Source: a candidate division WOR-3 bacterium | GTDB taxonomy: Bacteria > Hydrothermota > Tepidihabitantia > Tepidihabitantales > Tepidihabitantaceae | NCBI GenBank assembly: GCA_965649225.1 | Contig: CBFGJX010000008.1 | Span: forward strand, 21,512-85,511 | Length of the DNA stretch: 64,000 nucleotides | Direction: 5' to 3' | Shown here: one piece after another, positions 4,116 to 52,946 of the stretch | Position numbering within the stretch: position 1 is the first letter of the stretch | Layout: every line of letters starts with the position of its first letter | The notes under the pieces: generated by a model | Seen by the model: the letters and a program-made list of their open reading frames with translations, nothing else | Told to the model about the DNA's origin: nothing | Databases searched by the model: none | Position numbers and translations under genes: made by a program

Positions 4116-4123
4116 GACAAACG

Positions 4124-8491: not shown

Positions 8492-8495
8492 CGTA

Positions 8496-10004: not shown

Positions 10005-10080
10005 TGGTCCGACGACTTGACAACCGCAGTGGTCACACCAAGATTAATCAGGGCTGTCCGCAGCCCGGACAGGAGCAGCA

Positions 10081-10359: not shown

Positions 10360-10428
10360 CAAAACAGGTTCAGCGAAACTGACGCCCGGGAGCTTTGCGC
10401 CGGCCCGGGCGTTGTTTATAATCCAACC

Positions 10429-11886: not shown

Positions 11887-11888
11887 CG

Positions 11889-13721: not shown

Positions 13722-13727
13722 GGCCGG

Positions 13728-14222
13728 CTAGTATTCGTCCCGGCTGCCGGTCAGCTCCTTTTCCATCGCATCGGCGCACTTGATGACTGCGGTGATCACC
13801 GCCTGCAGCGACTGGGGATCGGCATCGGCGTCAATCTTGGCGACATACTTGGCAACGTAGGCGTTGTCATTGTCACGGTAAACCGCCCAGGCACCGATCT
13901 TGTTTTCGTCGCTGTCGATAAGCAGGCGGTTGGCGACTGCCGCCGAGAACGGGTTTTCAGACTTGTAGGCCGGAGCCCAGACTTCACGGATTTCCAGACC
14001 GTGATAGGTTTCGGTCTTGGAGTTGATGAAGACGAGCTGGGTGCGGTCTTCATCCAGCGAGAATACCATCCGGAAATTGCCGAGCTCGGTTACCTTGTAA
14101 TTGAGGTCAAGCTGGTCGAGCGCCGAGCGGATTCGGGCATCGCCGGTGGCACTCTTGCCGAGCTGGGCAAACACCGGAACGGCACAGATCAGCAGGACCG
14201 CGACAGTCGAGCGAACAGACAT
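13728..14222 (-). CDS. Periplasmic YbjN-domain protein (putative sensory-transduction / T3SS-chaperone-like fold)
   Basis: ATG at 14222 is preceded by GGAGGAAG. Signal peptide MSVRSTVAVLLICAVPVFA. The central region carries YbjN-like patterns (…VFSLDEDRTQLVFINSK…AVYRDNDNAYVAKYV…). The ORF-track N-terminus (to 14525) is a spurious extension. Confidence 0.55.
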   Translation of the reverse strand: MSVRSTVAVLLICAVPVFAQLGKSATGDARIRSALDQLDLNYKVTELGNFRMVFSLDEDRTQLVFINSKTETYHGLEIREVWAPAYKSENPFSAAVANRLLIDSDENKIGAWAVYRDNDNAYVAKYVAKIDADADPQSLQAVITAVIKCADAMEKELTGSRDEY

Positions 14223-14401
14223 GCTTCCTCCTTGGTAAGTAAAATAATTATACCCGATAAACAGTGGTAGCGGCAATGGCGACGGCGGTGAAATCCGAAC
14301 TTGCCAGGACCGGTCGGGCCGGGTTATCATTTCACCAGTGCGGAGGACAGGGGGCATGTGGGCAGGCAACTGGTTTTTCCGGTAAAGAGAGGAATCAGAG
14401 T

Positions 14402-19173: not shown

Positions 19174-19501
19174 ACCGAGCCCGGCCGGGTTGCAGTTGAA
19201 GCTAAATCCGGCATTTGGGGAGTAATGTCTTAACGCATTGACCACGCGTCAGTTGTCAAACGGCAATCCAACATCCCCCTCTCGTTCCCCCGGCGGTGAT
19301 GACGCAAGCTTGTGCCGGTGCCGCTGAACCGGTTTCAGTCAGACCTGTCAGCAAGCCGGACCGTGCGGCAGCCACTGGTTGCCGGATTGAGGTCGCCGGT
19401 GGGGCGGGACAAAAGCGATGATTGGTATCCGCGGCAGGCGAGTGTCCGAAACGGCGGTTGAGAGTCGGGCCGGACCGGTAATGGTGTATCAGGTCCGGCT
19501 G

Positions 19502-22500
19502 ATGCGTCTCGTGCGGCTCCTGCCACTGGCTGCGGCTGTCGCGCTCGGCGGCTGGTTGAACGAGGAACGCATCACCGCGCGCACCAACGCCGCCGACCGC
19601 ACCTCGCCTAACAACGCCCGCTGCCTCGCGGTCGATTCGGCCGGCAACGTCCACGCGGTGTGGTATGGCGAGGTCGGCGGAACACGCCAGATATGGTACT
19701 CACGGCGCGAGGCGGCGACAGGCGAATGGAGCGCAGACACCGCGGTCACTGCCGGCGTGAGGGATGCCGTCTTCCCTTCGGTCTCGGCCGACCCGGCCGG
19801 GAACGTTCACGTCATCTGGCAGGCGAATACGACCATCCCGGCCATCTGCTACAGGATGCGTGCGGTTGCAAGCGGGTGGGGCGCGGTCGAGACGGTCTGG
19901 CGCGGGTCGGGCGCGGCCAGCCCGAGCATCGCCAGTCCGGGCATGAGCGTGGCGCAGGCCGTTTGGATCGCCACTTTCCCGGCGCAGCACCAGAATGTCC
20001 TGTTCGCAGTCCGGGACAGCGCGGGCTGGCGGTCGCCGAGCGTGTTGAGCGAGGACAACGGGAGCGCGCACAGCAACCCGTGCATCGCCGCGGCATCGGA
20101 TACTCACGCAGCAGTCGTGTGGAATCGCGCGCCCACTCCACGCCTGGTGTGTGCCCGGTTGCTCGTGGACCATCAGCCTCAGACGCTGGAAACTCTCAGT
20201 GTCGGCGGGGGGCTGGCAAGCATCAGTGCCGGGCGCGGCGGCGTCTACAGGGCGGTCTGGAGCAAGTCCGGCGGGACAGCAGACTCTCTGCGCATCCGGA
20301 CATGGGCCGGGGGCGGCTGGCAGGCTGTTGCGCGCGTCGAGTGCGCCGGCCGGCAGGCCGGGCCGGCGTCCGTTGCCGACGACGCCGCAGGCCGGCCGAA
20401 CCTGTCGTGGTGCGCGCCCGGGCTGACATCGGTCGCCCAGGTCCATCACGCCGTTGCCGACTCCGCAGGTACGCAGTGGCATGACGCGCAGAGACTCACC
20501 GAGGCGTCAATCGGCCGGGAGAACCCGTCGATCGCGTGCGGGCCGGACGGCAGCATTCAGGTCATCTGGACCGACCAGCGGCACAGCAGCAGCAACACCG
20601 ATGTCTACTTCCGCCGGTGGGAGTTCGTGCGGGATGTGGCAGTGTTGGGATTTGAGGCGCTGGAGGACACCGTGGACTCGGGCGACGTTGTCGTGCCGAG
20701 GGTGAGCGTGGTGAACCTGGGCGATACGGTCGAACGGAACGTCCTGCTGTGGTTTCACGGGCCGGGCGTGAGCGCGGACACGGTGCTGGATACGATTGCC
20801 CGTGGTGACACGGTCGTTGTCCGGTTCGATTCGCTGGCCGGCCGCGTGCGCGGGTGGAACGTTGTTGTCTGTTCGACCCGCATCGAGGGGGACCGCCGGC
20901 GCGGCAACGATGCGGCGCGCGACAGCTTCTTCGTCGCGGTGCGGGATGCGGCGGTGGATTCGATTGTCGCACCGCGCGGGCAGGTGGTCGAGGATTCGGT
21001 CGCGCCGGAGGTGCTGCTCGCCAACCGCGGCAATCTGGCGGCGCGCTGCACCTGCATCGTGAGCATCGCGCGCGATTCCGCAGTTGTCTACGAGGCGGAT
21101 ACGGTGCTGGGTATCGCGCCGGGGTCGAGTGCGCGGATTGTGCTGCCGTACTGGCGAACCGCGCCGGGCGAATACGCGCTGCGCGCATCGGTACGGCTGG
21201 CCGGCGATATGGTGCGGGCCAATGACACGCTCTCGGCGCGGTTTTCGGTGCCGCGGCGCGATGTCGGAGTTGCCGGAATCATCGCGCCGGTCGGACAATT
21301 TGACTCGGGCGCGGCGGTCGAGCCGCAGGTCGTGGTGTTCAACGCCGGTGCGGCAGAAGAGTCTTTCGCCGCGCGACTGTGGATCGGGCAGGGCTGGCTC
21401 GACTCGGCGCGGGTCGAACGGCTTGGACCGGGCGAGAGCCTCGCGGTGCGATTTCGCGAGTGGCGGGCACTCGAACGCGGCGAGAGCGAGGTGCGCTGCT
21501 CGCTCGCGGTGCGGCCCGACCACGAGCCGGGCAACGACACCGCGGCCGGGGCGGTGTTCGTGCGGGTGATTGACGCGGCCGCGCGGTCAATCGAGCTGCC
21601 GCCCGAGGAGGTCGGGTTCGGGACGCTGTCGCCGCTGGTGAGGGTGCAGAACTCCAGCACGCAGGCAGAGTCGGTGCAGTGCCGGTTCGAGATCCGGGCC
21701 GGGGATTCGCTGGTCTGGGCCGATTCGGTCGCGGCCGGGCTGCCGGCCGGGGTTGACAGTACGGTTGAGTTCGGCGCGTGGGAGACGCGCGGCGGCTGGT
21801 ATCGCGCGGTCCTGCGGGTGAGCGCGGGTGGAGACATGCGGCCGGAGAATGATTCAGTCACGGTAGTGTTTCGCGTGCACCCGATTGATGCCGCGGCGCG
21901 CGCGATTGTTGCCCCGCGCGGGGTGATTCGCGCGGGCCTGGTCGCGCCGGCAGTGCGCATTGCCAATCTCGGGGACGAGACCGAGGACATCCGGCTTCGG
22001 CTCGGCATCGGTGCGGGCGGCGGCACGGGCTACGACGAGTCGACGCTGGTGACGGTCGAGCCGGGCCGGGAGACGACCGCAATGCTGCCGGCGTGGCGCG
22101 CGACGTGCGGCGAGTATTCGGTTTTCGCGCGCGTGGCCCTGCGCGGTGACATCAACCCGGGCAATGACCAGTTGGCGGGAAACGTCGTCGTGGAGTCGAC
22201 CGTGGTGTTGCGCTGGACCCGGCTGGCCGACATTCCGGCCGGGCCGCGCGGATTGCCGGTGCTGGACGGCGGCGCGCTGGCCGGGGCCGGCGGCAGGGTC
22301 TATGCACTCAAGGGCGGGTCGAGCGAGCTGTGGGCTTACTCACCACCAGAGAGCGTGTGGACCGCGCAGGCCGCGCTGGGCGAGAGCTGCCGGACCGGTG
22401 GCGGTGCCGCGCTGGCCTGGGACGGCGAGCGCTGGCTGTACGCGATTCGCAGCCGGCAGAGCGGTGAGCTGTGGCGGCTTGACCTTGCGGCCGATTCGTG

Positions 22501-23317
22501 GCAGGCGTGCCCGTCCCTGCCGCCCCATGTGCGGCGGTTCGGACACGGTGCGACGCTCGCATGCTGGCGTGGCGATACGCTCAAGCTTTTTGCGCTGCCG
22601 GGCGCGGGTTCGCTGGAGTTTTTCTGTTACCTGCCGGGACTGCGGCGCTGGCACGCGCGCCGGCCGCTGCCGGCCGGGCCGACCGGACGCCGTCCGCGCC
22701 GCGGCAGTTGTCTTGTCAGTGCCGGCAACCGGCTGTTCTGTCTGAAGGGTGGCACCGGCGAATTCTACGAGTATTTTCCCCGCCGCGATTCCTGGGTTGA
22801 ACGTTCCGGAATGCCGCGCATCAGCCGTGCCGGTCGGACCCGAAGCGGCGGTGACGGTGCCGCGGCGGGATGGGATGGCGGTGACCTGATTTACTTTACC
22901 AAGGGCCGCGGTCTGGAGTTCTGGCGTTATCGCATCAGTGCCGATACCTGGGAACAGCTTGAGGACGTGCCGCGGTCGGTGCCGCGCCGGGCCTGCCGCA
23001 AGGGTACCGGTCTGACCGTGCTGGGTGGCAACGTGTATCTGTTGCGCGGCAACGCAACGCGCGAGTTCTGGTGCTATGACCCGGACGCAAACAACCTCGG
23101 CACTCTGGCGGTCTTGCCGCCAGCCGGGCATGAGCCGTCGCGGGTCGGGCTGCGGCGCGGGCCGCTGGCGCACAACGGGAGCGATGCTGCCGGCTGGCGC
23201 TGGTACGACGCAGCCGGCAGACGGGTTTTGCCGGGCCGGCGGGCCGGGGTGGTGTTTGCGGTTGGGCCGGGTGGAGCAGTGAAGCTGGTTCTGGTGCGGC
23301 CACCGGCCGGGAGATAA
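19502..23317 (+). CDS. Giant secreted multidomain protein. It combines a sialidase/BNR-like β-propeller, 6× CARDB-like Ig modules and a Kelch-like β-propeller.
   Basis: Signal peptide MRLVRLLPLAAAVALGGW (ATG at 19502; the ORF-track start at 19418 is an extension). N-terminal blades resemble …D.AGN.H.VW…, e.g. AVDSAGNVHAVWYGE, SADPAGNVHVIWQAN, CGPDGSIQVIWTDQ. CARDB-like repeats include DVGVAGIIAPVGQFDSGAAVEPQVVVFNAG…. The C-terminal repeats follow G…Y…GG…ELW.Y.P..D.W (Kelch-like). The tail is …YDAAGRRVLPG..AGVVFAV…KLVLV…. Confidence 0.75.
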   Translation: MRLVRLLPLAAAVALGGWLNEERITARTNAADRTSPNNARCLAVDSAGNVHAVWYGEVGGTRQIWYSRREAATGEWSADTAVTAGVRDAVFPSVSADPAGNVHVIWQANTTIPAICYRMRAVASGWGAVETVWRGSGAASPSIASPGMSVAQAVWIATFPAQHQNVLFAVRDSAGWRSPSVLSEDNGSAHSNPCIAAASDTHAAVVWNRAPTPRLVCARLLVDHQPQTLETLSVGGGLASISAGRGGVYRAVWSKSGGTADSLRIRTWAGGGWQAVARVECAGRQAGPASVADDAAGRPNLSWCAPGLTSVAQVHHAVADSAGTQWHDAQRLTEASIGRENPSIACGPDGSIQVIWTDQRHSSSNTDVYFRRWEFVRDVAVLGFEALEDTVDSGDVVVPRVSVVNLGDTVERNVLLWFHGPGVSADTVLDTIARGDTVVVRFDSLAGRVRGWNVVVCSTRIEGDRRRGNDAARDSFFVAVRDAAVDSIVAPRGQVVEDSVAPEVLLANRGNLAARCTCIVSIARDSAVVYEADTVLGIAPGSSARIVLPYWRTAPGEYALRASVRLAGDMVRANDTLSARFSVPRRDVGVAGIIAPVGQFDSGAAVEPQVVVFNAGAAEESFAARLWIGQGWLDSARVERLGPGESLAVRFREWRALERGESEVRCSLAVRPDHEPGNDTAAGAVFVRVIDAAARSIELPPEEVGFGTLSPLVRVQNSSTQAESVQCRFEIRAGDSLVWADSVAAGLPAGVDSTVEFGAWETRGGWYRAVLRVSAGGDMRPENDSVTVVFRVHPIDAAARAIVAPRGVIRAGLVAPAVRIANLGDETEDIRLRLGIGAGGGTGYDESTLVTVEPGRETTAMLPAWRATCGEYSVFARVALRGDINPGNDQLAGNVVVESTVVLRWTRLADIPAGPRGLPVLDGGALAGAGGRVYALKGGSSELWAYSPPESVWTAQAALGESCRTGGGAALAWDGERWLYAIRSRQSGELWRLDLAADSWQACPSLPPHVRRFGHGATLACWRGDTLKLFALPGAGSLEFFCYLPGLRRWHARRPLPAGPTGRRPRRGSCLVSAGNRLFCLKGGTGEFYEYFPRRDSWVERSGMPRISRAGRTRSGGDGAAAGWDGGDLIYFTKGRGLEFWRYRISADTWEQLEDVPRSVPRRACRKGTGLTVLGGNVYLLRGNATREFWCYDPDANNLGTLAVLPPAGHEPSRVGLRRGPLAHNGSDAAGWRWYDAAGRRVLPGRRAGVVFAVGPGGAVKLVLVRPPAGR

Positions 23318-23505: not shown

Positions 23506-26500
23506 TTAATCCAGTCTTACCGCTTTGACCGTTGTTCGCTGCCCCGCGGCTTCAAGCTGCAGGAAGTAGATGCCCCGGGCAAGGGGTTGGCCGGCAGCGT
23601 CGGTGCCGTCCCAGCGGACAGTGCCGGCGCCGGCCGGCTGGTTGCCGGAAAGCAGTTGTTTCACCATGCGGCCGGAGTTGTCATAGACGGCCAGATTCGC
23701 TATGCCCGGCTGAGGCAGAACATAGCGGATTGAGGCCGGATCGCGCAGCGGGTTGCGGTCGATGCCAAGAACCGGCAGCAGGGTGGGACCGGTCAATGGT
23801 TCGCTGATGGCGGTGGACTGACTGGTGGTGTACCTGATCGCGCGGCCGGGCCCGAGCGGCGCTGCGCCGCGATGATAGGTGCCATCAAACAGGCAGTTGA
23901 TGCCGATGGCGCAGGTCGGGTCTTCGATCCCCACCGTCGCCGAGCCGAAGTCGTTGCCGCCGCGGTACTGCAGGATTATCTCGTTGTCGCGGGTCGGGGT
24001 CTGCACCGTGGTGTCGTAGATGATGAACTGGCCAATGACATAGCTGGTGCGCGGGCTGTACTTGCAGACCGAGTCGTATTCGATGATGAAGCGATGGTTG
24101 GTTGCATCGTGCCAGTACCACACCCCGCGCCCGGCCTGAGGATACAGGTCGTCCCAGAGCAGACAGAGGTTGGCCGGCTGAGCACCGTCGGGCAGACTGA
24201 CATTGGAGTAGCTCGAGCTGGTGGTCGAGCCGGGCGCTATCCAGCCGTTGGAGCAGATGCTGACCTGCGTGAAGCTCTGACCGTAGTAGCGCCAGGGCCC
24301 GAACGCCGGCGGCAGACTGACAACCGCGGTCTGGTCGTCGGAGAGCGTCAACCGGGTGCCGACACCGTTGATTTCCACCCACTCGAACTGGGGCCGCTGG
24401 GCATAGCCCGAATCGACGTCGTCGTAGGCCCAGTAGCGGGCCGGCTGCCGCGGCCCGTCCGGTATCGGGTCAACCGCCCGCAGTTCACCGACGACGATGT
24501 CGAAGGCAAGCGTGTCGGTGTAGCCGGTGCCGGCAACGAAGAGCTGCATCGTAACCGGATATTCGCGCGGCGTGAAGGGCGAGGAGCGGATTTGAAACCG
24601 GTCGGACCAGTTGGTCCGGCTGGAATCGGGCAGGATGGTGCCGTAGCTTGCCTGGGCGTCGATTACCGTGATGAGGGTATCGGGACTGAACAGTGTTGCA
24701 ACGACATTCTGAGCCGGCAGGCGGCCGACGTTGCCGAGGCGGACAGCGAGCTCGGCGGTTTCGCCCGGATCGAGCCGGTTGTTGTTGTTACCGCCGGGCG
24801 GAGAGTCGATGATATATTGCTGCTGGTACACCAGCGCGGCTGAATTGGTGGCAATCGCTTCGACCGCATCGAGGTCAAAGCCGGCAGTGGCGCCGGAGAC
24901 CGCGCCGGAGTCGTCAACAATCTTGATGAAGCGAAAAGCGCTGACGCTGCCGCGGCTGAGGTCGAAGCTGTCGGTGCCGGTGGCCCAGCCAAGGCTGGTC
25001 CAGGGGCCGGCCCAGTCCAGTGCGACTTCGACGCGGTAGCCTTCGGGGTCGGCGTCGTCCTCATACACCGTGAAGTCGCTGCCCGGGCCATTGACCAGAG
25101 TGCGGCCGAAATCGTAGATGGCGAAGCCGCCGCGGCCGAGCGAGAAGCGGCGGCCGTCGCGCGGGCCGAGGGCCCAGTCCGGGGTCGAAACGATCAAAGT
25201 GTCGCTGACCCCGCGGCCGCTGATGAACTGGTGCAAGGCGACGGGCAAAGTGGTGTCGGGCACGAGCGCAACATTGAGGCGGGTAACCGTGTCGGCGGTG
25301 ACCGTGACACCGGTGATGGTCTTGCTGCGATAGCCGTTGGCTTCGAAGACCACGTCATAGGTGCCCGGCCGCAGATAGCGGTGGTAGTCGCCGATGCTGT
25401 CGCAGAAACTGGGAAAATTGATGGGCATCGGCCGGACCCGGGCACGCACCGGCGCGCCGGTGACCGAGTCGGTGACGATGCCGCGGATGCCGCGGTCGAT
25501 GTTGGCCAGTATCATCTTCATCGCGGCGTGCTCGCGTGCGATTATCTGGGCGAGCGACTCGACCGGCGGAGTCTTGTAGATGCAGGTTTCGACGGTCCAG
25601 CCGATGGCGCCGGTAGTGCCGTAGGCGTAGTCCTTGGACGAGCCGTTGATGCGGTACATTCCCCGGTACCCGGGGGCGTTGGGGTAGCCGGTGATGTCGT
25701 GGTAGCGGCCGCCCAGATACCAGAACTCCATCGAGTCGCGCGTGCCGAAGGGCGAGTAGCTCCAGGGCGTGGAGATGAAGTAGGTGCCGCCGTGGCCCGA
25801 CTGCCAGAAGTTGAAGCAGTTGCGCTGCATCAGCCGGAGCTGGACCCGGGTCTCGGGCTGGGTGAAGCCTTCGCGCGCCGAGGTCTCGTACCACCACATG
25901 AAGCCGTAGTCGCGGTTGCAGTCGTAGCCGTTGCGGTTGGTGCGCGCGCCGGCGATGTGGCCGTATGGGTTGGTCGGGCAGAGCACCCAGATTTCCCGGG
26001 TGTTGACCCAGTAGGTGACGTCGGGGTCGACCCCGTAGTTGCGCGCGAGGTAGACCGCGAACTCGAAGGCGGGTTCGGTGGCGCATTTTTCGTCGCCGTG
26101 GATGGCGGCTTCAAACATCAGTTCGGGCTCGTCTTCTTCGAGCTGCGGGTTGTCGGTTATTTTCAGGGCGAAGATGAGGCTGTCGTTGGATGCGAACCCG
26201 AGCGTCTCGAACTTGATGAAGGTCGGGTTGTTCTGCGCCATCAGCAGAAAAGTGTCTTTAATCTGAGTGTAGGTGTGAAACCGGTAGTCGAGCGCGTTCT
26301 TCTCGTAAAAGCCGGTGATGTCGCGCTTGAGTACCGCGACACTCCAGCCGTCGCGCTCGAGCCGGGCGACGCGGTCCTGGGGCACCTCGACGAGCATCCG
26401 GCCGTCCGGTCCCGGGCCGTTGATGATGCAGCCGAGGTCTTCAAGCTCGCGGATGTCCTCGCGGGTACGGACATCGACGGTGACAAGGTCGTAGCGCGGT

Positions 26501-26550
26501 GCGGCCGAAGCCGCGAGCGCCAGGGCGGCAAGGACAAGAACAATTCTCAA
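23506..26550 (-). CDS. M14-family Zn carboxypeptidase with a carboxypeptidase-regulatory-like domain, extra β domains and a type-A T9SS-like C-terminal sorting domain
   Basis: TTG at 26548-50 follows AGGAGG. Signal peptide MRIVLVLAALALAASA. The M14 Zn motif HGDE in …AIHGDEKCATEP…. A CarbopepD_reg-like segment (GIVTDSVTGAPVRARVRP…). The C-terminus is …PASIRYVLPQPGIANLAVYDNSGRMVKQLLSG…WDGTDAAGQPLARGIYFLQLEAAGQRTTVKAVRLD. Confidence 0.75.
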   Translation of the reverse strand: MRIVLVLAALALAASAAPRYDLVTVDVRTREDIRELEDLGCIINGPGPDGRMLVEVPQDRVARLERDGWSVAVLKRDITGFYEKNALDYRFHTYTQIKDTFLLMAQNNPTFIKFETLGFASNDSLIFALKITDNPQLEEDEPELMFEAAIHGDEKCATEPAFEFAVYLARNYGVDPDVTYWVNTREIWVLCPTNPYGHIAGARTNRNGYDCNRDYGFMWWYETSAREGFTQPETRVQLRLMQRNCFNFWQSGHGGTYFISTPWSYSPFGTRDSMEFWYLGGRYHDITGYPNAPGYRGMYRINGSSKDYAYGTTGAIGWTVETCIYKTPPVESLAQIIAREHAAMKMILANIDRGIRGIVTDSVTGAPVRARVRPMPINFPSFCDSIGDYHRYLRPGTYDVVFEANGYRSKTITGVTVTADTVTRLNVALVPDTTLPVALHQFISGRGVSDTLIVSTPDWALGPRDGRRFSLGRGGFAIYDFGRTLVNGPGSDFTVYEDDADPEGYRVEVALDWAGPWTSLGWATGTDSFDLSRGSVSAFRFIKIVDDSGAVSGATAGFDLDAVEAIATNSAALVYQQQYIIDSPPGGNNNNRLDPGETAELAVRLGNVGRLPAQNVVATLFSPDTLITVIDAQASYGTILPDSSRTNWSDRFQIRSSPFTPREYPVTMQLFVAGTGYTDTLAFDIVVGELRAVDPIPDGPRQPARYWAYDDVDSGYAQRPQFEWVEINGVGTRLTLSDDQTAVVSLPPAFGPWRYYGQSFTQVSICSNGWIAPGSTTSSSYSNVSLPDGAQPANLCLLWDDLYPQAGRGVWYWHDATNHRFIIEYDSVCKYSPRTSYVIGQFIIYDTTVQTPTRDNEIILQYRGGNDFGSATVGIEDPTCAIGINCLFDGTYHRGAAPLGPGRAIRYTTSQSTAISEPLTGPTLLPVLGIDRNPLRDPASIRYVLPQPGIANLAVYDNSGRMVKQLLSGNQPAGAGTVRWDGTDAAGQPLARGIYFLQLEAAGQRTTVKAVRLD

Positions 26551-26630
26551 CACAGCCTCCTGAGTTGCTGAAAATGACAGACAGTTGATTTTAAAGTCGG
26601 CCCCGGGCCGGTCAACCCGGCCGGCTGTCA

Positions 26631-27332
26631 TCACATCCGAAACGGCGGTCGTGCCGCGGAGCCGAACCGCAGGCCGGCATCCCAGGACAGCCCGCCCAGG
26701 CCAAAACGCGGCGGCTGACCCCGGCCGGTGTAAACTTCGGGGCCGCCGATTGGAATGAACCAGCCGGCGCGGGTATAGAGCGCAACGTAATGCTCTTCGC
26801 CGTAGCGCAGCCGTCCCATCAGTTCGAGCGCCGGCATGACGCCGACGGTCCAGCCCCAGAAAACATCCCAGATGTCCGGGTCAGCAACAAACAGCGCGCC
26901 GTCTTCGATGGAGTGGGCATAGAGAAACCAGGCGCCGAAACCGACATTGACATGGGGTCGGACCCAGAAGAAATCACGCGGTACCCAGGCGTAACCACAG
27001 TCGAAGCTGCCGCGCAATCCGACCAGTTCGGCCGCCAGCGAGTCGGCCCGCTGGGTGGAGGCGGTGACAGAACCCTCACCACCGAGGGTGATGTTGCCAA
27101 CCGCGCCGGCACGATGGCCGCCCAGCCACCATACCGGCCGGCGCAGGCGGAACGAGTCGTTGCCGCGATAGCGGTCCGGGTCGCGGTTGAGCCGGGAAAG
27201 GGTCTGGTTCAATCCTGATGTTCTGAGCCAGGTGGCACTGATGCCGAAGCCACCATAGCCGGCCAGGGCGGTGCCGGTGAGCAGAAAAAACAGTACAGCC
27301 GGAGTGAGATTCCGGCGGATTTCAGTTGTCAT
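26631..27332 (-). CDS. Putative outer-membrane β-barrel protein (hypothetical), upstream of and co-oriented with the M14 gene
   Basis: ATG at 27332 is preceded by AAGGAGA. Signal peptide MTTEIRRNLTPAVLFFLLTGTALA. Alternating aromatic/Gly-rich β-strand-like segments and a C-terminal …F-R-M aromatic end. The ORF-track N-terminus (to 27665) is spurious. Confidence 0.45.
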   Translation of the reverse strand: MTTEIRRNLTPAVLFFLLTGTALAGYGGFGISATWLRTSGLNQTLSRLNRDPDRYRGNDSFRLRRPVWWLGGHRAGAVGNITLGGEGSVTASTQRADSLAAELVGLRGSFDCGYAWVPRDFFWVRPHVNVGFGAWFLYAHSIEDGALFVADPDIWDVFWGWTVGVMPALELMGRLRYGEEHYVALYTRAGWFIPIGGPEVYTGRGQPPRFGLGGLSWDAGLRFGSAARPPFRM

Positions 27333-27993: not shown

Positions 27994-28066
27994 GCCGGCG
28001 TAGCTCAGTCGGCAGAGCAGCGGTTTCGTAAACCGCAGGTCATCGGTTCGAATCCGATCGCCGGCT
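27994..28066 (+). tRNA. tRNA-Thr (anticodon CGU)
   Basis: GCCGGCGTAGCTCAGTCGGCAGAGCAGCGGTTTCGTAAACCGCAGGTCATCGGTTCGAATCCGATCGCCGGCT folds as a cloverleaf with the anticodon loop TTCGTAA. The ORF track translates straight through it. Confidence 0.85.
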
Positions 28067-28107: not shown

Positions 28108-30057
28108 ATGGAACGTAAACTGGTCCTGCTCTTCGGACTGTTGCTGGTGCTGACTCCGTCGGCGTCGGCGGCAACGCGCCGGGCCGCCCCATTCGCGCTT
28201 GCCTCACCACTGCTTTTCGCCGCGATTCTGAGCCGTGGCCGCGACCCGCGGCGTGAGGCCGAGGAACAGGCGGCGTTTGAGGAGGCCGAACGTCAGCGGG
28301 CCGAACGCCGGGCCCGGGCAGTCTTCGATCACTTTGTTGATGCCAGCCCGGTCAGCATTGAGATTTTTGACCCGAAGGGCAAACCCCTGCGCAGCAACAA
28401 GGCGGCCGAGCGGCTGCTGGGCAAGGTGCCACCACCGGGCATTTCGCTTTTTGAGCCGCGCGGACTGAAGCGGGCCGGGCTGCTCGAGCCGCAACTGAAA
28501 CGGGTGCTGGCCGGCACCCGGGTCGAGACGCCGCCAACATGGTACGACCCGACCGAAATCGGCCTGCCCGGCATTCCGGGGCGCAAGGTTTGCTTCCGGG
28601 CAACGGTTTTCCCGCTGTTCGACAACGAGGGCAGGCTGGTTGGTATCGCGGTGATGCATGAGGACCTGACCGAGCTCAAGGCAGCTCAGCAGGCGGCAAA
28701 AGAGGCGGAAGAACGGGCACGGGAAGCCGCGGCGGCGGTGCCGGAGCCGGTACCCGAGCCGGTGGTGCTGCCGCCGGATGCCGACCCGCGCGATATCGAG
28801 TTTCAACGGCGCAAGCTGGAAGCGGCGCTGCGCGAGAGTGAGGAGCGGTTCCGGTCGGTGTTTGATTCGGCGCGCGGGTACGCGCTGGTTCGATTCGGCG
28901 AGCCGGGGCAGATTATCTGCGCCAGCCCGACCGTGGTCGAAATCTGGGGCGTTGCCCGGGACGATATCGTCCGCAACGGCACGCTGTACTTTGCTCAGGT
29001 CCATCCGCAGGACCTGGATCGGGTAATGGATGTTGAAGCCCAGGCCCGTCGGGCCGGTGCCTATCCGGTCGGCTACGAGTTTCGGGTTGTCAACAAGACC
29101 ACCGGGGCCGTACGCTGGGTCGAGGTGCGCGGTTCACAGGTCGCAATCGGCAACCGCAAGGTGATGGATGCGCTGATTCAGGACGTTACCGATCGCCACG
29201 CGGTTGAAGCGGCACTGAATCAGCGGCAGCAGGATATCGGTGTTCTGATCAACAGCGCCATTGACGGAGTCGTAACCGTTGACCGGGAGTGGGTTGTCAA
29301 GGCCTGGAGTCCGGGAGCAGAGCGGGAAACCCGGCTGCCGGCAGCGGCTACGGTCGGCAAGCGGCTCTGGGATGTCTATCCGCAGCTGGAGCAGGCGGGT
29401 TTTGCCGCCGGCCTGCGGCGGACGATGACCGATCGGACACCGGTGACTTTTGAAGGATTCTATGGCGATGGCCGGGAGCGTTTTTCCGGCTGGTTCTGTT
29501 TCAGTTCCTATCCTCTTGATGACGGGCTGCTGCTGTTGGTGCGCAATACCACCCAGCGGCGCCGGGCGGAACTGGCCTGGCAGGAGGCCGAAACCCGGCT
29601 GCGGTCGCTGTTTGACCAGCCCGGGCTGGCGATAACTCTGAAAGACCTGCAGTTGCGTTACATTCTGGCCAATGATGCCGCGTTGAAGGCCTATGCCGTT
29701 TCGGCCGGAGAGGTGGTGCTGGGCAAAACCGACCCCGAGCTGTTCAATGCCCGGGTTTCAGCGCTGCTGGCAACTCACGACCGGCAGGTGATTGAAACCG
29801 GTCGGCCGGTTGAAATTGAAATCGCCCTCCCAGATGGCGCCGCCGCCAACGCAATGTGGTATCACATCGTCAAGCAACCGTGGAAAAACGCCGCCGGCGA
29901 AGTGCTGGGCGTTTTTGACATCGCCTGGGATATCACTGCCCGGGTCAATGCGCAGAACGAACTGGCCCGCCGGCGTGAGTATGTTGCCGGTCTGGTTGCC
30001 GAGGGCAGCCAGCTGTTGCAGCGGGCGCAGGAAGACCTAAAGCGCTGGTCGAGCTGA
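28108..30057 (+). CDS. Multi-PAS-domain sensor protein (about 4 PAS/PAC modules, coiled coil) with no recognisable output domain
   Basis: ATG at 28108 (MERKLVLLFGLLLVLTPSASA is a signal/TM segment). The repeated PAS signatures are …VSIEIFDPKGKP…, …GQIICASPTVVEIWGV…, …GVLINSAIDGVVTVDREWVVKAW… and …LAITLKDLQLRYILANDAALKAY…. No HisKA, HATPase, GGDEF, EAL or HTH follows. Confidence 0.7.
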   Translation: MERKLVLLFGLLLVLTPSASAATRRAAPFALASPLLFAAILSRGRDPRREAEEQAAFEEAERQRAERRARAVFDHFVDASPVSIEIFDPKGKPLRSNKAAERLLGKVPPPGISLFEPRGLKRAGLLEPQLKRVLAGTRVETPPTWYDPTEIGLPGIPGRKVCFRATVFPLFDNEGRLVGIAVMHEDLTELKAAQQAAKEAEERAREAAAAVPEPVPEPVVLPPDADPRDIEFQRRKLEAALRESEERFRSVFDSARGYALVRFGEPGQIICASPTVVEIWGVARDDIVRNGTLYFAQVHPQDLDRVMDVEAQARRAGAYPVGYEFRVVNKTTGAVRWVEVRGSQVAIGNRKVMDALIQDVTDRHAVEAALNQRQQDIGVLINSAIDGVVTVDREWVVKAWSPGAERETRLPAAATVGKRLWDVYPQLEQAGFAAGLRRTMTDRTPVTFEGFYGDGRERFSGWFCFSSYPLDDGLLLLVRNTTQRRRAELAWQEAETRLRSLFDQPGLAITLKDLQLRYILANDAALKAYAVSAGEVVLGKTDPELFNARVSALLATHDRQVIETGRPVEIEIALPDGAAANAMWYHIVKQPWKNAAGEVLGVFDIAWDITARVNAQNELARRREYVAGLVAEGSQLLQRAQEDLKRWSS

Positions 30058-30103: not shown

Positions 30104-31840
30104 GTGAAAAAGAAGCAGCGACCACCGGTGACAGCAAAACCTCAGGCTGAGTCAACCGGCCTGACCCGGTTCGCGCGCCGGTGGGGACTGCTGCTGGCGG
30201 TTGCCATCGCAGTGCTGGGTCTGGCGCTGCGGGCGTCAGACCTGCGCGCTGACCCGCCGCCCGATCTGAGCTGGAGTTTTGCACCCTACACCGACGAGGG
30301 GCTGAATACCTATTCGGCGCGCAATTTCGTCCTCTACGGTGCGTGGAAAACCGACGACTTTTTCCCGTTTGTGGTGTATCCGCTGGTGAATTATCTGGTG
30401 GCACTGGTGTTTCGACTGTTTGGCATCGGTTTTGTCCAGGTGAAGCTGGTGTCGCTGGTCGCAGCGGTGCTGGGCGTGCTGGCCGCCTGGTTGCTGGCCC
30501 GCGAGGGCGGTGGTGAGTTGGGCGGGGTACTGGCGGCACTGCTGGTCGCGACGTCCTATCCGCTGGTAATGTATGGCCGGCTCGGTCTGATCGAGACCGT
30601 GCAGATTCTCTTCCTGCTGTTTACCGGCTGGTGCTGGGTGCGGGGGCTTGACCGGCCGCTGCCGATGATTCTGGCCGGGTTTTTTGCCGCAGCCACGGTG
30701 CTGCTGGTCAAAATCTCGGCAGTATTCATCGCCCCGGTAATGGTGGTGGTGTTCGCCTGGGAGTTTTTCGAGCGGCGCGACCGGGCCGGTCGGGTTGAAC
30801 TGCTGCGCCGGCTGGGACTGTTTATTGCCGGGGTTGGCGTCGCAGTTGCGGTCTGGCTGATTGCGGTCTTGCTGCCGCATCGGGCCGACTATCTGCGTTA
30901 TGTGCTGCGTCACTCGTTTGAGTCGCCGGCCGGACATCCTGAGGGGCTGACGGCTTATCTGTTCAATACTTTCACCGTCGGCGTGCGTTCCCGAATCGTG
31001 CCGCGCACTGCCTGGACCGCATTGCTGGGAATCATCGCCCTGCCGGTGCTGGCGCTGGGTCGCCGACCGGCGCTGCGCTATGTGCTGGCATGGTTCGTCT
31101 TTGGAGTCCTGCTGCTGGGCTATATGAACTACCGGCCGCCCCGGTACGAGATTATCATCATTCCGGCACTGGCCGTTGCGGCCGCGGTGATGCTTGCCCG
31201 GCTGCTTGAAGGCGGTGTGCTGCTGCCCCGGCTCCGGCCGACAATTGGCAAGAGCATCCTCGCCGCGCTGTGGCTGTGGCCGGTTTGTCTGCAACTTGCC
31301 CTGTACACGGGCGGGTTTTGGGGTCTGCTCAAACCGCGCAGCGAGGGCGAACTGCTGGTGGCGGCGGCGGTCGTTGCGGCAGTGCTGGCGGCGCTGGCTC
31401 ATCTGCTTTTCCGCATCGTCAAGTCGCCGCGGCTGGTGCGGGGGACGTTTGCCCGGCTGGCGCTAGCCGCAGTGCCGCTGCTGCTGATACTGCAGCTGGA
31501 CCTGGGTCAGTATGGCCGCTGGTTTGAGAATCGGACCCACAATATGGTGGCATTCGCGCGCGAACTGGATGCCGCTTTGCCCGAAAAGGCGGTGCTGGCC
31601 GGCGGCTGGGCACCGGCGCTGTTGCTGGAGTCGCGCAAGCGGGCCTTGTGTATTACCGACTGGGCCAACATCGACGACCCGGTGGGGCGGTTTGGTGTTA
31701 CGCACCTGGTTTCGCCGGAAAACGGCTTCGACTATCGGCTGTTCAGCGAGCAGTATCCGGAACTGATGGCCCGTGCCGAAGTGCTGCGCCGGTTCAATGT
31801 CCGGGGCCTGGTGCTGACCGTGTACAGTCTGCCGCGCTAG
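30104..31840 (+). CDS. GT-C membrane glycosyltransferase of the GT39/PMT_2 (ArnT / protein O-mannosyltransferase-like) family
   Basis: At least 10 predicted TM helices. An N-terminal loop with DE (APYTDEGLNTYSARN), reminiscent of the PMT/ArnT catalytic loop. The C-terminal periplasmic domain is about 120 aa. Confidence 0.6.
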   Translation: MKKKQRPPVTAKPQAESTGLTRFARRWGLLLAVAIAVLGLALRASDLRADPPPDLSWSFAPYTDEGLNTYSARNFVLYGAWKTDDFFPFVVYPLVNYLVALVFRLFGIGFVQVKLVSLVAAVLGVLAAWLLAREGGGELGGVLAALLVATSYPLVMYGRLGLIETVQILFLLFTGWCWVRGLDRPLPMILAGFFAAATVLLVKISAVFIAPVMVVVFAWEFFERRDRAGRVELLRRLGLFIAGVGVAVAVWLIAVLLPHRADYLRYVLRHSFESPAGHPEGLTAYLFNTFTVGVRSRIVPRTAWTALLGIIALPVLALGRRPALRYVLAWFVFGVLLLGYMNYRPPRYEIIIIPALAVAAAVMLARLLEGGVLLPRLRPTIGKSILAALWLWPVCLQLALYTGGFWGLLKPRSEGELLVAAAVVAAVLAALAHLLFRIVKSPRLVRGTFARLALAAVPLLLILQLDLGQYGRWFENRTHNMVAFARELDAALPEKAVLAGGWAPALLLESRKRALCITDWANIDDPVGRFGVTHLVSPENGFDYRLFSEQYPELMARAEVLRRFNVRGLVLTVYSLPR

Positions 31841-34926: not shown

Positions 34927-35146
34927 TTCCAACTCCTTGTGCGGTCTGGCTGTTATCGAGCGTATCATACGCCGGTGTGTGCCACGGGCAAGTCCAGTCA
35001 ACGTTTTGTCCGGCTGCCGGCGGCGAAGTTCGGCCGGCAGACCGGCGGTTAGTCGGCTGAGAAGATCGGTGAAACCGCTAGTTTCTGGCTGATTGACGTT
35101 GCCAGTTTGGGCAATAGCATTTCTCGTCCAACCGACAGGAGGTAAT

Positions 35147-36697
35147 TTGCTGCTTGTCCTGCTGACGATTCTTACGCAGACGCCGACTGTGCCGATGCGC
35201 TGCGCGACGCCGCTGTTCGAGAGCCTGAAGGCCGGCGGGTTGCCGCCGGCGCCGAAGCCCCGTCCGGCCGGCGAACGACTGCGCGTGGGCGATTCGCGCG
35301 TGATGTGGCTGCAGAACATGAGCGTGATGCCGCCGGTTCAGTTTCAGGCCAGTCTGACCTGTCGCGCGGTCGGCCCGCACTGCTACGTGATGGTCGAGGA
35401 CTCGGCATGGAACGCCGGCCAGGTTGATTCAGCCGACGTCGCGCGCATCGTCGAACGGTTCGATTTCTCCAGCCCGCGCGACAGCACGAAGGGCGTGTGG
35501 GGGCACAACACTTCGGTGCTGGGGATGCCGCCCGACGCCATCGACAACGACTCGGCCATCTACCTGCTCTACTACGACGTCGGCTCTTTCCACGGCTACT
35601 CTTTCGACGGGTTCTGGCAGTACTTCGACCAGTACTACGATACGACCGCGATGCGGCTGTGGGGCTACCATTCCAACGAGGTCGAGTGCGTGTACCTTGA
35701 CTGCTGGCCCAACAATCCGGCCGGCGATTACCGCATCGCCATTGTCGCGCACGAGTTCGGCCACATGATTCACTGGAACTATGACCCGGCCGAGTCGCTC
35801 TGGGTGGTCGAGGGCAACTGTGAGCTGGCGATGTGGCTGTACGGCACGCCCGACCCGGTGTCTTCCTTCCCGTCCAACCCGGACAATGACCTGACGAGCT
35901 GGACTGGGGCTTGGGCCGATTACATCAAGACCTACCTGTTTTTCCTCTACCTTTACGAGCAGTATGGCGGCCGGGTTGGTCTGGACCTGATTCACAATGT
36001 CATTGCCTCGCCGTTTGTCAGCATCGAGGGTATTGACTCGGCCTTCGCTGCAACCGGGCGGGACGAGCGGTTTACCGATGTCTTCGATAGCTGGGTGCTG
36101 GCCAACCGCATCAACGACACATCTTTCGCCGGCGGCCGGTACGGCTACTACGGTGAGCGCGTGCCGCGGTTCGGGGTTGCCGGTTACCATTTCACCTTCC
36201 CGGTAGCACGCAGCGGCGACCTGAACCGCTGGGCCGGCGAGTACATTCTCTTTCAGGGTGGGACCGGGCTTGCCGCGACTTTTGATGCCGCCGACAACGC
36301 CGATTTCCGGTTGTTTGTTGTCGGGCTGGACACGGTGAGACGGCGGCTGTTTCTGGACACGATTACGCTCGACTCGGCGGGCCGGGCCGACATCAGCGTG
36401 CCGGGGTTTGGCACGGACTGGCAGTCGGTATATCTCGTGCCGGTAAACCACACGCTTTCAGGGCGGCGGTCGTACAGCTACACCGCGAACGCTTCCGGTC
36501 TCGCCGAAGCAACGTCGGCCGGGCGTGGCCGTCTGTCTGTGCCAACGGTCTGTCGGGCAGGAGATTTGCGGCCGGGACTTGCCGACCGCCTGTTCGCTGC
36601 CGATGGACGCGTGATCCGGTCGCCCGCAGAACTCAAACCCGGAGTCTATTGGCTCAAGGCCGGCGAGGAGATTCGCCGGGTCGTGCTGGTGCCCTAG
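35147..36697 (+). CDS. Secreted HEXXH gluzincin metallopeptidase with a short class-B C-terminal sorting-type tail
   Basis: TTG at 35147 after AGGAGG (the alternative in-frame TTG at 35093 has no Shine-Dalgarno sequence). The zincin motif is AIVAHEFGHMIHWNYDP…E. The tail is …FAADGRVIRSPAELKPGVYWLKAGEEIRRVVLVP. Confidence 0.65.
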   Translation: MLLVLLTILTQTPTVPMRCATPLFESLKAGGLPPAPKPRPAGERLRVGDSRVMWLQNMSVMPPVQFQASLTCRAVGPHCYVMVEDSAWNAGQVDSADVARIVERFDFSSPRDSTKGVWGHNTSVLGMPPDAIDNDSAIYLLYYDVGSFHGYSFDGFWQYFDQYYDTTAMRLWGYHSNEVECVYLDCWPNNPAGDYRIAIVAHEFGHMIHWNYDPAESLWVVEGNCELAMWLYGTPDPVSSFPSNPDNDLTSWTGAWADYIKTYLFFLYLYEQYGGRVGLDLIHNVIASPFVSIEGIDSAFAATGRDERFTDVFDSWVLANRINDTSFAGGRYGYYGERVPRFGVAGYHFTFPVARSGDLNRWAGEYILFQGGTGLAATFDAADNADFRLFVVGLDTVRRRLFLDTITLDSAGRADISVPGFGTDWQSVYLVPVNHTLSGRRSYSYTANASGLAEATSAGRGRLSVPTVCRAGDLRPGLADRLFAADGRVIRSPAELKPGVYWLKAGEEIRRVVLVP

Positions 36698-36718: not shown

Positions 36719-38272
36719 ATGACACGCATCGTGATTCTGAGTGCAATGCTCTGTGCCGCTGCCGCCGCGCAAACCGGTGTGGTCGACACCGTCGGTGGCA
36801 CGACGTTTGACAACCAGAACACCGGACCGGCCCTGCAGTGGATAATCAATGACCCGCATAACGGCATCCATGTGACCTGGCTTTACAGCGCGCTGGCGCG
36901 CGGATCGAACTGGCCTGACCGGACGATGAAGTACAACTATCTGGACCGCGCGACCGGCGAGTGGAACTGGATGGATCCGAATGATTACATGCTGTCGGGC
37001 CTTAACTCCCAGAACCGGCGCACCGGGTACGGAACGATGGAAATTGACCCGACCGATGGTGCAGCGTTGATTGCGGCACACTACAGCTTGGGCGGGATGC
37101 CACCGCAGTGGTGCCCGGTCGTGGCGCGGGACGTCGCTCCAGGGGGTGGAATCTTCGACTGGTGCGTTGGCGAGCCGAACTTGGTGAATCACTTCCTGCC
37201 CGTAGTGGCGGTCTCGCCGGGCGGCATCATCCACCTGCTGCACATTCAGTTTGCCACTTCGGACAATCTGTTCTACTCACGCTCGACCAGCTGGTGTAAC
37301 TGGGACGGACCGCAAGGCTGGCAGCAGTCAGGCGCGTACGGCCACAATCTGTGCGCGTCGCACCAATCCGACGCCGTGGTCGCATCTTGGCTCCGTGGTT
37401 CGGGTAGTGAAGCGGCCCTGTTCGTGCGAATGTCGACCGACGCGGGCGCGAGCTGGGCCATACCCACCGAACTCGTGCCGCCGAGCGTATACGGCGGCGA
37501 TACGGTCACCGCCTGCGGCCAGGGCGCGAATGTACTGTTTGACCGCAATGACGACTGGCTGCTGGCGACCGTGCTGGTGCCAGTGGTGGCCGAGACCGCA
37601 CGCAGCAACCCGGCCGAGATATGGGTGTTCAAATCGGCCGGGGCAAGCTGGCACCGGGTGCGCCGGGCCGGCGCACGGACGCCGGCAGGGTCTTTGGGGT
37701 CGAACGCGACATTCTGCGGCCGGCCTTCGCTTGGGCAGAATCCGGTGACCGGGCGATTCTGGATCACTTGGGAAGAGTTCGACTCACTCGACGTTGAGCC
37801 GAGCACCGGACTGTTGCGAGCCGAGGTCTGGTGCGCATGGTCGGACGACGGAGCTGCCTGGTCAGAGCCGGTTCGGCTGACGTCGCCTGACGGCACCTCA
37901 AAGCGGTTCCCGGTTCTGGCGCGTGACTGCACGGACGATTCGCTGGCGGTGTTCTACGTCCAGGACCTCATTGCCGGATTCAACTCCGATTCGGTCGGGG
38001 CAGTGTCGAATAACCCGGTTTGCGTCTGGCGGGGCGCGCTCGCGGGTATCGCCGAGGCTGCCAGAAGCGGGCCGCACATCCGTCTGGCCGGGCACGGTAT
38101 CGCGCGCGCCGGTGTGTCGCTGACAGTTGCCGGCCGGGCAAGGCTGCTCGGGCCGGATGGCCGCGTCGCGGTCGCAGGCCGGGGCGGGCGCGTTGCGACG
38201 GCCGGACTGAGAGCCGGCGTTTACTGGCTTGATGACGGGGTCGCGCGCCGCCGGTTTGTTATCCTGCGCTGA
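36719..38272 (+). CDS. Secreted BNR/Asp-box sialidase-like β-propeller protein with a class-B C-terminal tail
   Basis: Signal peptide MTRIVILSAMLCAAAAAQ. Asp-box-like STDAGASW and SDDGAAWS. Blades similar to the N-terminus of the giant protein (…DPHNGIHVTWLY…). The tail is …LLGPDGRVAVAGRGGRVATAGLRAGVYWLDDGVARRRFVILR. Confidence 0.65.
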   Translation: MTRIVILSAMLCAAAAAQTGVVDTVGGTTFDNQNTGPALQWIINDPHNGIHVTWLYSALARGSNWPDRTMKYNYLDRATGEWNWMDPNDYMLSGLNSQNRRTGYGTMEIDPTDGAALIAAHYSLGGMPPQWCPVVARDVAPGGGIFDWCVGEPNLVNHFLPVVAVSPGGIIHLLHIQFATSDNLFYSRSTSWCNWDGPQGWQQSGAYGHNLCASHQSDAVVASWLRGSGSEAALFVRMSTDAGASWAIPTELVPPSVYGGDTVTACGQGANVLFDRNDDWLLATVLVPVVAETARSNPAEIWVFKSAGASWHRVRRAGARTPAGSLGSNATFCGRPSLGQNPVTGRFWITWEEFDSLDVEPSTGLLRAEVWCAWSDDGAAWSEPVRLTSPDGTSKRFPVLARDCTDDSLAVFYVQDLIAGFNSDSVGAVSNNPVCVWRGALAGIAEAARSGPHIRLAGHGIARAGVSLTVAGRARLLGPDGRVAVAGRGGRVATAGLRAGVYWLDDGVARRRFVILR

Positions 38273-47309: not shown

Positions 47310-48044
47310 TCAGTCCCGGCCGAACCAGCGGCGCAGTCGCAGTTTGATGACCAGCCAGAACGCCTGCCAGATGATCCGGCGCGACATCTTTGAGACGCCG
47401 GCCGAGCGTTCGGTGAAGACGATTGGAGTTTCGATGAACTTCAGCCCCCGGCGCACAATCGCGAAGACAATCTCAATCTGAAAGCCGTAGCCGTCAACGC
47501 GGAGCCGGTCGAGGTCGATCGATTCCAGCGCCCGGCGGGTGTAGCCCTTGAAGCCGGCGGTGAGGTCCCGCACCGGGATGCCGGTGCCGATGCGGGCATA
47601 AATCGATGCGCCGTAGGAGAGCAGCAGCCGCTTCATCGGCCAGCGAACGATCGAGATGCCGTCGCAATAGCGCGAGCCGATGACCAGGTCGTGGTCTTTG
47701 AGCAGCTCCAGCATCACCGGCAGCCGGTCGGCCGGGTGGGAGAAGTCGGCATCCATCTCAAAGAAGCGGTCGTAGTCCCGCGCCAGGCCCCACTTGAAGG
47801 CAGCGACATAGGCCGTGCCCAGTCCCTGTTTGCCGGAGCGACGCAAGAGATGAACCCGCGGATTGTTGCGGGCCAGTTCGGCGACGATGTCGGCGGTGCC
47901 GTCCGGCGAGCCGTCGTCAATCACCAGAACGTCCAGCTCGGGTGACTGAGCGAGTACGAGCGGAATGATGCGGCCGATGTTTTCGGCCTCGTTGTAGGTG
48001 GGGATGCAGACCAGCGCGCGCGGCACGGGCAATGATATTGACAT
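47310..48044 (-). CDS. GT2 polyprenol-phosphate mannosyltransferase (Dpm1/Ppm1-like dolichol-phosphate mannose synthase)
   Basis: VCIPTYNEAENIGRI…LVIDDGSPDGT…EMDADFSH are the DPM1/GT2 DXD signatures. Length 244 aa. Confidence 0.8.
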   Translation of the reverse strand: MSISLPVPRALVCIPTYNEAENIGRIIPLVLAQSPELDVLVIDDGSPDGTADIVAELARNNPRVHLLRRSGKQGLGTAYVAAFKWGLARDYDRFFEMDADFSHPADRLPVMLELLKDHDLVIGSRYCDGISIVRWPMKRLLLSYGASIYARIGTGIPVRDLTAGFKGYTRRALESIDLDRLRVDGYGFQIEIVFAIVRRGLKFIETPIVFTERSAGVSKMSRRIIWQAFWLVIKLRLRRWFGRD

Positions 48045-49396: not shown

Positions 49397-49411
49397 ATAA
49401 AGGAGACCAAG

Positions 49412-50269: not shown

Positions 50270-50315
50270 GGTTGTCCGGTGGCGGGAGGCCGGCCGGCCT
50301 CCCGCCACCGGTACC

Positions 50316-52114: not shown

Positions 52115-52121
52115 GAGCAAG

Positions 52122-52880: not shown

Positions 52881-52946
52881 TGGCGCTTGCATTGTTTCGC
52901 CGGCTGGATGATAATCATCTGACCGCGACCGGAACAGGAGTCTAAT

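Follow-up and report, generated by a model that had tools for sequence, protein, structure and literature searches.

Protein O-mannosyltransferases of family GT39, such as yeast Pmt1, Pmt2 and Pmt4 and actinobacterial Pmt, have a GT-C fold with an acidic motif in the first loop, and take mannose from a polyprenyl- or dolichyl-phosphate carrier charged by a GT2-family synthase of the Dpm1 type, Ppm1 in the actinobacterial case. In ArnT (GT83), about 13 transmembrane helices are followed by a small periplasmic domain at the C-terminus. Three-component systems, which join a GT2 synthase, a flippase-like protein and a GT-C enzyme, include GtrB/GtrA/GtrC, CsbB/GtcA/YfhO, the streptococcal GtrB/PgtC2 and PgfS/PgfM1 systems, and mycobacterial PpgS with its GT-C partner. 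Acceptors in these systems comprise O-antigen, teichoic acids, arabinogalactan and proteins (PMC12041528, PMC11127046), and the streptococcal GT2 and GT-C systems O-glycosylate Ser/Thr-rich protein regions (PMC12041528). Here we compare with these systems two glycosyltransferase genes, hereafter GT-C and GT2, in a 64,000-nucleotide stretch of DNA (the window; contig CBFGJX010000008.1, positions 21,512 to 85,511) assigned to a candidate division WOR-3 bacterium. A preliminary description of the window had paired the two products as the dedicated components of protein O-mannosylation. What the evidence shows instead is a GT-C enzyme of conventional kind, as yet uncharacterised, and a synthase of the mannose donor that belongs to housekeeping; the two genes are not specifically linked. 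Both open reading frames (ORFs) were confirmed at the positions first given for them:

30104..31840, forward strand: GT-C glycosyltransferase, 578 amino acids (aa), Pfam PF13231, GTG start.
47310..48044, reverse strand: Dpm1/Ppm1-type GT2, 244 aa, putative GDP-mannose:polyprenyl-phosphate mannosyltransferase, ATG start.

Homologues of both proteins point to a WOR-3 origin of the window, which has a G+C content of 64%. A word search with GT-C returned 83 clusters, nearly all from WOR-3 metagenome-assembled genomes (MAGs), matching over the full length at 50-97% identity. The sole Pfam family passed by GT-C was the catch-all PF13231 (PMT_2; RgtA/B/C/D-like), with 47.2 bits against a cut-off of 26.1 over residues 93-225, and all orthologues carried the same precomputed domain. 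With PF02366 (PMT), GT-C scored 17.7 bits, under the 22.7 cut-off. E. coli K-12 ArnT, used as a control, scored 211 bits with PF02366 and 37 bits with PF13231; the 'PMT' model therefore takes in GT83 as well as GT39, and a true member of PF02366 scores roughly tenfold above GT-C. Since a genuine ArnT outscores GT-C on the PMT model, the names 'PMT' and 'PMT_2' are uninformative on protein mannosylation, and 'PMT_2' should not be taken to mean 'protein mannosyltransferase'. GT-C gave no match to PMT_4TMC (PF16192) at E up to 1 and no MIR domain in the Pfam scan. In NCBIfam, it lacked a match to the ArnT equivalog, and its sole match was Agl23, which at 23.8 bits stayed far under the cut-off of 126. 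Neither phmmer with GT-C nor hmmsearch with a 33-sequence profile found matches among all PDB chains, and when the orthologue profile was compared in hhalign with E. coli ArnT, taken as a single sequence, nothing meaningful came out. Because these sequence and profile comparisons found nothing, relatedness to ArnT and PMT was judged from Pfam scores and fold alone.

A high-confidence AlphaFold2 model of GT-C was built from the 33-sequence alignment (pLDDT 91, pTM 0.91) and compared with the PDB using Foldseek. The first-ranked structure was ArnT of C. metallidurans (5f15/5ezm; E 4e-10, TM-score 0.55-0.60), aligned over about 600 columns at 18% identity; the match spans the whole protein and takes in the C-terminal periplasmic domain. 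STT3/AglB, ALG12/ALG9, DPY19 and EmbC followed. PMT structures (Pmt4, Pmt1/2) stood at ranks 24-34 with E-values of 1e-4 to 3e-3, and aligned partially, mostly over about 275 columns. Like ArnT, GT-C has about 13 transmembrane helices, at least 11 of its segments being strongly hydrophobic, and ends in a small periplasmic alpha/beta domain of about 100 residues (approximately 477-578). The N-terminal residues 1-25 are basic (seven Lys/Arg) and the first loop, residues 45-92, is acidic (seven Asp/Glu), which by the positive-inside rule places loop 1 in the periplasm. These results show that GT-C is an ArnT-shaped enzyme and an orthologue of neither PMT/GT39 nor ArnT/GT83. It belongs to an uncharacterised family inside PF13231, and its initial assignment to GT39/PMT did not hold.

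Loop 1 of GT-C contains the sequence 'YTDE'. Across the 33 aligned orthologues, Asp64 never varies and Glu65 shows at least 90% conservation, in agreement with the polytopic, Asp-Glu-bearing N-terminus first described, and the Asp equivalent to Asp64 is invariant in 18 distant relatives too. Other invariant motifs are D84-D85, R159..E164, K203, H270-S271..G277-H278-P279 and, near residue 345, N-Y343-R-P345-P-R347-Y348-E349; the motifs, the catalytic loop included, persist in distant relatives. The loop-1 Asp-Glu had been proposed as a way of telling PMT enzymes apart. E. coli ArnT has it as well ('QPDETRYAE'; 'QPDETRYAEISR'), and in both proteins an aromatic residue and an Arg follow ('PDETRYAEISR' in ArnT, 'TDEGLNTYSAR' in GT-C), so that the motif does not separate PMT from ArnT.

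The nearness of the ArnT fold raises the reading that GT-C is an ArnT/Rgt-type enzyme, which adds 4-amino-4-deoxy-L-arabinose (Ara4N), galacturonic acid, hexosamine or hexose from a polyprenyl-phosphate donor, either to the phosphates of lipid A or to sugars of the core. This was the alternative already mentioned in the preliminary description, and it stands as regards the fold, which is nearer to ArnT than to PMT, and fails as regards orthology. The preliminary description had named two results that would overturn it, grouping of GT-C with ArnT and grouping of GT2 with ArnC-type enzymes; neither was obtained outright. In its favour, one GT-C homologue carries the UniRef label 'RgtA/B/C/D-like', and the host organism appears to be a diderm, as the window encodes an OmpA-TPR protein, a BamD-like match and a porin. 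The window also encodes one sugar aminotransferase, 27 kb from the GT-C gene:

59054-60157, reverse strand: DegT/DnrJ/EryC1-family sugar aminotransferase; best NCBIfam matches PseC and dTDP-4-amino-4,6-dideoxygalactose transaminase, all under cut-off.

This protein reached 162 bits with the ArnB model, whose cut-off is 631, and matched PseC/WecE at least as well; a score so far under the ArnB cut-off provides no evidence for an Ara4N pathway. A scan of about 50 window ORFs found no arnBCADTEF-type context (ArnC-type synthase, ArnB, ArnA, ArnD, ArnE/F), and the only nearby lipid-sugar synthase resembles dolichyl-phosphate mannose synthase (DPMS) and not ArnC. Together with the low identity to ArnT, the absence of a significant sequence or profile match, and the scores with PF02366 and NCBIfam, this makes lipid A or lipopolysaccharide (LPS) core modification an unlikely function for GT-C.

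The second enzyme, GT2, scored 103 bits with Pfam Glycos_transf_2 (PF00535). Its best PDB match was DPMS of Pyrococcus furiosus (PfDPMS; 5mlz, E 7.8e-30, residues 10-242), compared with E-values of 1.5e-7 to 3.4e-6 for ArnC chains and 26% identity to E. coli ArnC; GtrB gave no PDB match to GT2 at E up to 1e-3. The ligand-contact residues of PfDPMS have been described (PMC5526996), and were transferred onto GT2 through pairwise alignment with 5mlz. Donor and acceptor contacts are kept at 14 of the 16 positions (Y17, E19, D44, G74, L75, D98, D100, H103, R125, R139, S143, F188, R213 and K219), the two changes being Q93 to Ser102 and K178 to Gln189. Human DPM1 has the same two substitutions. GT2 contains a DAD motif at residues 98-100, an amphipathic C-terminal tail and no transmembrane domain. 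In this last respect, it resembles human DPM1 and the catalytic domain of mycobacterial Ppm1, and differs from the type III PfDPMS, which has a transmembrane domain; GT2 may therefore need a membrane partner.

A word search returned more than 8000 homologues of GT2. Its WOR-3 orthologues are named 'polyprenol monophosphomannose synthase' by PGAP, and no curated NCBIfam equivalog was over cut-off for GT2. By its sequence, GT2 is a Dpm1/Ppm1-type synthase predicted to act on the cytoplasmic face, closer to DPMS than to ArnC, and this part of the preliminary description is borne out. Conservation of the contact residues suggests that it would have polyprenyl-phosphate-mannose synthase activity, with the corresponding sugar specificity.

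GT-C and GT2 are not a dedicated pair or unit. In the window, their genes lie 15.5 kb apart, with 13 unrelated genes between them, including a Znu-type ABC permease and ATPase, an M17 peptidase, two unannotated secreted proteins, pyrE-like, pyrF, pyrD and pyrK genes, a TPR-OmpA protein, tldD/pmbA and a tRNA-Leu. Among 28 GTDB-species loci and 4 metagenome loci, neither a GT2 nor any of the intervening window genes was found within 10 kb of GT-C. Throughout WOR-3, GT2 is conserved as a stand-alone gene that adjoins tldD/pmbA, and in other WOR-3 genomes it has no GT-C nearby. The two genes had first been read as a pair; their distance and their separate neighbourhoods contradict this.

The surroundings of GT-C are different outside WOR-3. 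An exhaustive search with a GT-C profile gave 355 representative clusters with E-values up to 1e-30, a number that rises to 1476 when E-values up to 1e-10 are admitted; a search with a profile of distant relatives gave at least seven proteins. Most members of this wider family align with GT-C over its full length, and many have 100-250 extra C-terminal residues. The nearest clade outside WOR-3, which includes a Zixibacteria MAG protein, shows 31% identity over the full length (E ~1e-76) with the motifs kept. In approximately 24 of 26 informative loci of this sister clade, the GT-C gene directly adjoins a GT2 of another subtype (GT2-B, 245-290 aa), which is 21-24% identical to the window GT2. 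For GT2-B, the highest-scoring NCBIfam models, all under cut-off, were those of AglJ, PpgS and dolichyl-phosphate hexose transferase; among PDB structures, DPMS came first (7e-12).

Three loci of the sister lineage (L058, positions 94-15343; L049; L059) conserve a co-directional glycan cluster of about 15 kb and 13 genes; parts of it, ending before the last genes, are present in L046 and L061. The first half runs TPR, GT4, LPG_synthase_TM (flippase-like), two methyltransferases, GT2-B and GT-C, and is followed by GT2, GT4, LPG_synthase_TM, methyltransferase, a YfhO-like GT-C and a Dpm1-like GT2. The latter is 55% identical to the window GT2 and begins, in L058, 4 nucleotides (nt) after the YfhO-like gene. 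Altogether, the cluster holds two GT4 genes, three GT2 genes and two to three methyltransferase genes. The lineage is low in G+C (40%) and probably related to Zixibacteria. Both window families thus occur in one cluster in these three loci, each with another immediate partner: GT-C with GT2-B, and the Dpm1-like GT2 with the YfhO-like GT-C. The cluster apparently consists of two modules of synthase, flippase-like protein and GT-C, and looks like machinery that builds and decorates a glycan or glycolipid, rather than a protein-mannosylation system of two genes. Its first module, in which GT-C stands with an AglJ/PpgS-like GT2 and a flippase-like LPG_synthase_TM protein, has the composition of the three-component systems introduced above, and would be expected to work by their mechanism. 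The window departs from that composition: it has no flippase-like gene, its synthase is 15.5 kb away, of the other GT2 subtype and unlinked to GT-C in relatives, and GT-C is coupled to a multi-PAS gene instead.

We favour the reading, with a probability of roughly 55%, that GT-C is an active periplasmic lipid-phosphate-sugar transferase of ArnT-like fold engaged in ordinary envelope glycosylation, with an envelope glycoconjugate as the likely acceptor. In the proposed pathway, GT2 would make polyprenyl-phosphate mannose on the cytoplasmic face, and a flippase would expose the lipid-linked mannose to the periplasm. Fold and conservation suggest that GT-C, in common with all enzymes of this fold, moves a sugar from a flipped polyprenyl-phosphate donor to an extracytoplasmic acceptor, with loop-1 Asp64/Glu65 together with K203, R347 and Y348 serving catalysis and phosphate binding. 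That the donor of GT-C is the product of GT2 itself is a separate step, to which we give a little less than an even chance. The acceptor would most likely be a glycolipid, a lipoglycan or a polysaccharide/LPS rather than protein Ser/Thr, because the nearest relatives of GT-C sit in the synthase/flippase-like/GT-C module of glycan clusters. The WOR-3 gene would have left such a cluster and would now, in most loci, be co-transcribed with the gene for a cytoplasmic multi-PAS protein.

Several observations weigh against this assignment. Gene context taken from relatives of 29-35% identity may not carry over to WOR-3. The window and 34 WOR-3 loci contain neither a flippase-like gene nor a glycan-building GT4 or GT2, nor any of the other genes of the sister-lineage cluster, so that the WOR-3 enzyme stands in a genetic setting different from that of its relatives. 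Finally, C-terminal TPR repeats, seen in three of seven long GT-C relatives tested, constitute the architecture of the animal TMTC proteins and could point to protein acceptors.

The partners observed in the sister lineage also allow a reading in which the two window genes are functionally unrelated, GT-C depending for its donor on an AglJ/PpgS-like GT2 whose gene lies elsewhere in the genome, and the Dpm1-like GT2 serving other GT-C enzymes, for instance YfhO-like ones. The adjacency of GT-C and GT2-B in the sister clade and the position of the Dpm1-like GT2 behind the YfhO-like gene in L058, L049 and L059 argue for it, as does the far greater abundance of Dpm1-like GT2 proteins in word searches (>8000 against 83 matches for the GT-C family). 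However, the window and the 34 WOR-3 loci contain neither a GT2-B orthologue nor a YfhO-like gene, and if WOR-3 lacks these genes, the Dpm1-like enzyme would be the only donor synthase available. We regard this reading as a serious but tentative competitor, which falls clearly short of an even chance.

Protein O-mannosylation in the manner of actinobacterial Pmt/Ppm1, with GT-C acting on secreted hydrolases or on their sorting tails, was the original proposal for the window. GT2 is a credible polyprenyl-phosphate-mannose synthase, such as PMT enzymes depend on, and GT-C shares with them the GT-C fold and the acidic loop-1 motif. Protein O-glycosylation by a GT2 and a GT-C enzyme is known outside Actinobacteria, in streptococci (PMC12041528), and both gene families share one cluster in the three sister-lineage loci. 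The closest structural template of the TMTC protein O-mannosyltransferases is also ArnT (PMC7801869), so that an ArnT-like fold neither fixes the acceptor nor excludes a protein. Some GT-C relatives share with TMTC1-4 the layout of a GT-C domain followed by C-terminal TPR repeats. The window GT-C and all its WOR-3 orthologues differ from TMTC1-4 in having no TPR repeats, and GT-C has no DUF1736 match; the likeness found between it and TMTC1-4 is one of fold.

Against the proposal, the hallmarks of PMT fail in GT-C: it is under the PF02366 cut-off, it has neither PMT_4TMC nor MIR, and PMT structures rank 24th or lower. Its linkage to GT2 is not conserved, no co-localisation with the synthase being seen in WOR-3, and the sister cluster places the Dpm1-like GT2 with a YfhO-like GT-C instead. 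The GT4 and methyltransferase genes in the clusters of relatives resemble glycan assembly. The secreted proteins of the window, described at first as a Ser/Thr/Pro-rich secretome, have an ordinary Ser+Thr+Pro content of 0.15-0.20 and no long Ser/Thr/Pro tracts. Outside the two glycosyltransferase genes, the window is housekeeping DNA, and it is therefore not a glycosylation island. Nothing was found that specifically supports protein O-mannosylation, and we consider it improbable here; if correct, it would place a Pmt/Ppm1-style system in an uncultured phylum.

The gene that accompanies GT-C in WOR-3 encodes a multi-PAS protein and lies directly upstream on the same strand:

28108..30057, forward strand: multi-PAS protein, 649 aa, about four PAS domains, N-terminal hydrophobic hairpin; ends 46 nt upstream of GT-C.
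27994-28066: tRNA-Thr.

The start of this gene is probably the ATG at 28108, because a longer ORF from 27982 runs through the tRNA-Thr. Domain scanning revealed no output domain in the protein. Of 27 informative WOR-3 genome loci, 20 have the multi-PAS gene directly ahead of GT-C on the same strand, and so do L066/L067. The recurring neighbours are 45-77% identical, and their spacing to GT-C varies between an overlap of 4 nt and a gap of about 70 nt. The gene is missing in the complete chromosome CP070680.1, where GT-C lies at about 2.607 Mb, and in L009, whose GT-C is 73% identical. A promoter and terminator scan of the PAS/GT-C region gave no clear signal, with 10 terminator-like sites against 4.9 +/- 2.6 expected and one weak site in the 46-nt gap. 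Some orthologues of the multi-PAS protein have an N-terminal two-helix membrane hairpin and many are without any N-terminal hydrophobic segment, which indicates a cytoplasmic protein and rules it out as a periplasmic acceptor of GT-C.

The PAS partner suggests a further reading, which we hold to be highly unlikely: that the WOR-3 GT-C, detached from the ancestral cluster and placed under the multi-PAS protein, is a signal-controlled envelope glycosyltransferase, possibly a TMTC-like O-mannosyltransferase using the Dpm1-type donor. If true, protein O-mannosylation would reach an uncultured FCB-related phylum by way of a GT-C family outside GT39. Two points alone are mildly unusual: the repeated pairing of PAS and GT-C genes in WOR-3, and the presence of two synthase/GT-C modules in the cluster of the sister clade. 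With these, the GT-C family now has defined neighbourhoods, a two-module glycan cluster in the sister lineage and a PAS partner in WOR-3.

Several secreted proteins of the window share a C-terminal tail, which is probably a sorting signal; none is notably rich in Ser, Thr or Pro:

14264-17392, forward strand: S8 subtilase ORF with FlgD_ig-type C-terminal domain, 1042 aa counted from the first possible start codon.
23506-26634, reverse strand: M14 carboxypeptidase ORF with FlgD_ig-type C-terminal domain, 1042 aa counted from the first possible start codon.
8460-10004, 35093-36697, 36719-38272 and 19418-23317: further secreted proteins with the shared C-terminal tail.

An M28 peptidase, a BNR-like protein and an unannotated 534-aa protein end in a 'GVYW/F...RR.V.L' tail resembling FlgD_ig ends, and a Kelch/CARDB protein has a looser version of it. 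An Rfam scan of the window returned two tRNAs and nothing else.

Downstream, the stop codon of GT-C overlaps by 4 nt (31837-31840) the stop codon of a convergent ABC-3 (Znu-type) permease gene. A ZnuA binding-protein gene lies between GT-C and the permease in L001 and L003, and is missing in the window and in L009. In L003, a WOR-3 genome, the conserved block downstream of GT-C is interrupted at 18893-20027 by defence-looking PIN-domain and TIR-domain (ThsB-like) genes.

In L005, another WOR-3 genome, a 963-aa ORF (8730-11621) directly follows the Dpm1-like GT2. It was considered as a GT-C and rejected as a TPR-repeat protein, being built from some two dozen near-identical TPR units of 34 residues, with hydrophobic C-terminal segments. 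In the window itself, GT2 is divergent from a phosphate-uptake block at 48209-55610 on the forward strand. The block comprises a PstS-like binding protein, two permeases, an ATPase, PhoU and a PhoB/PhoR-type two-component pair, together with a 395-aa beta-barrel-like protein that has no Pfam match.

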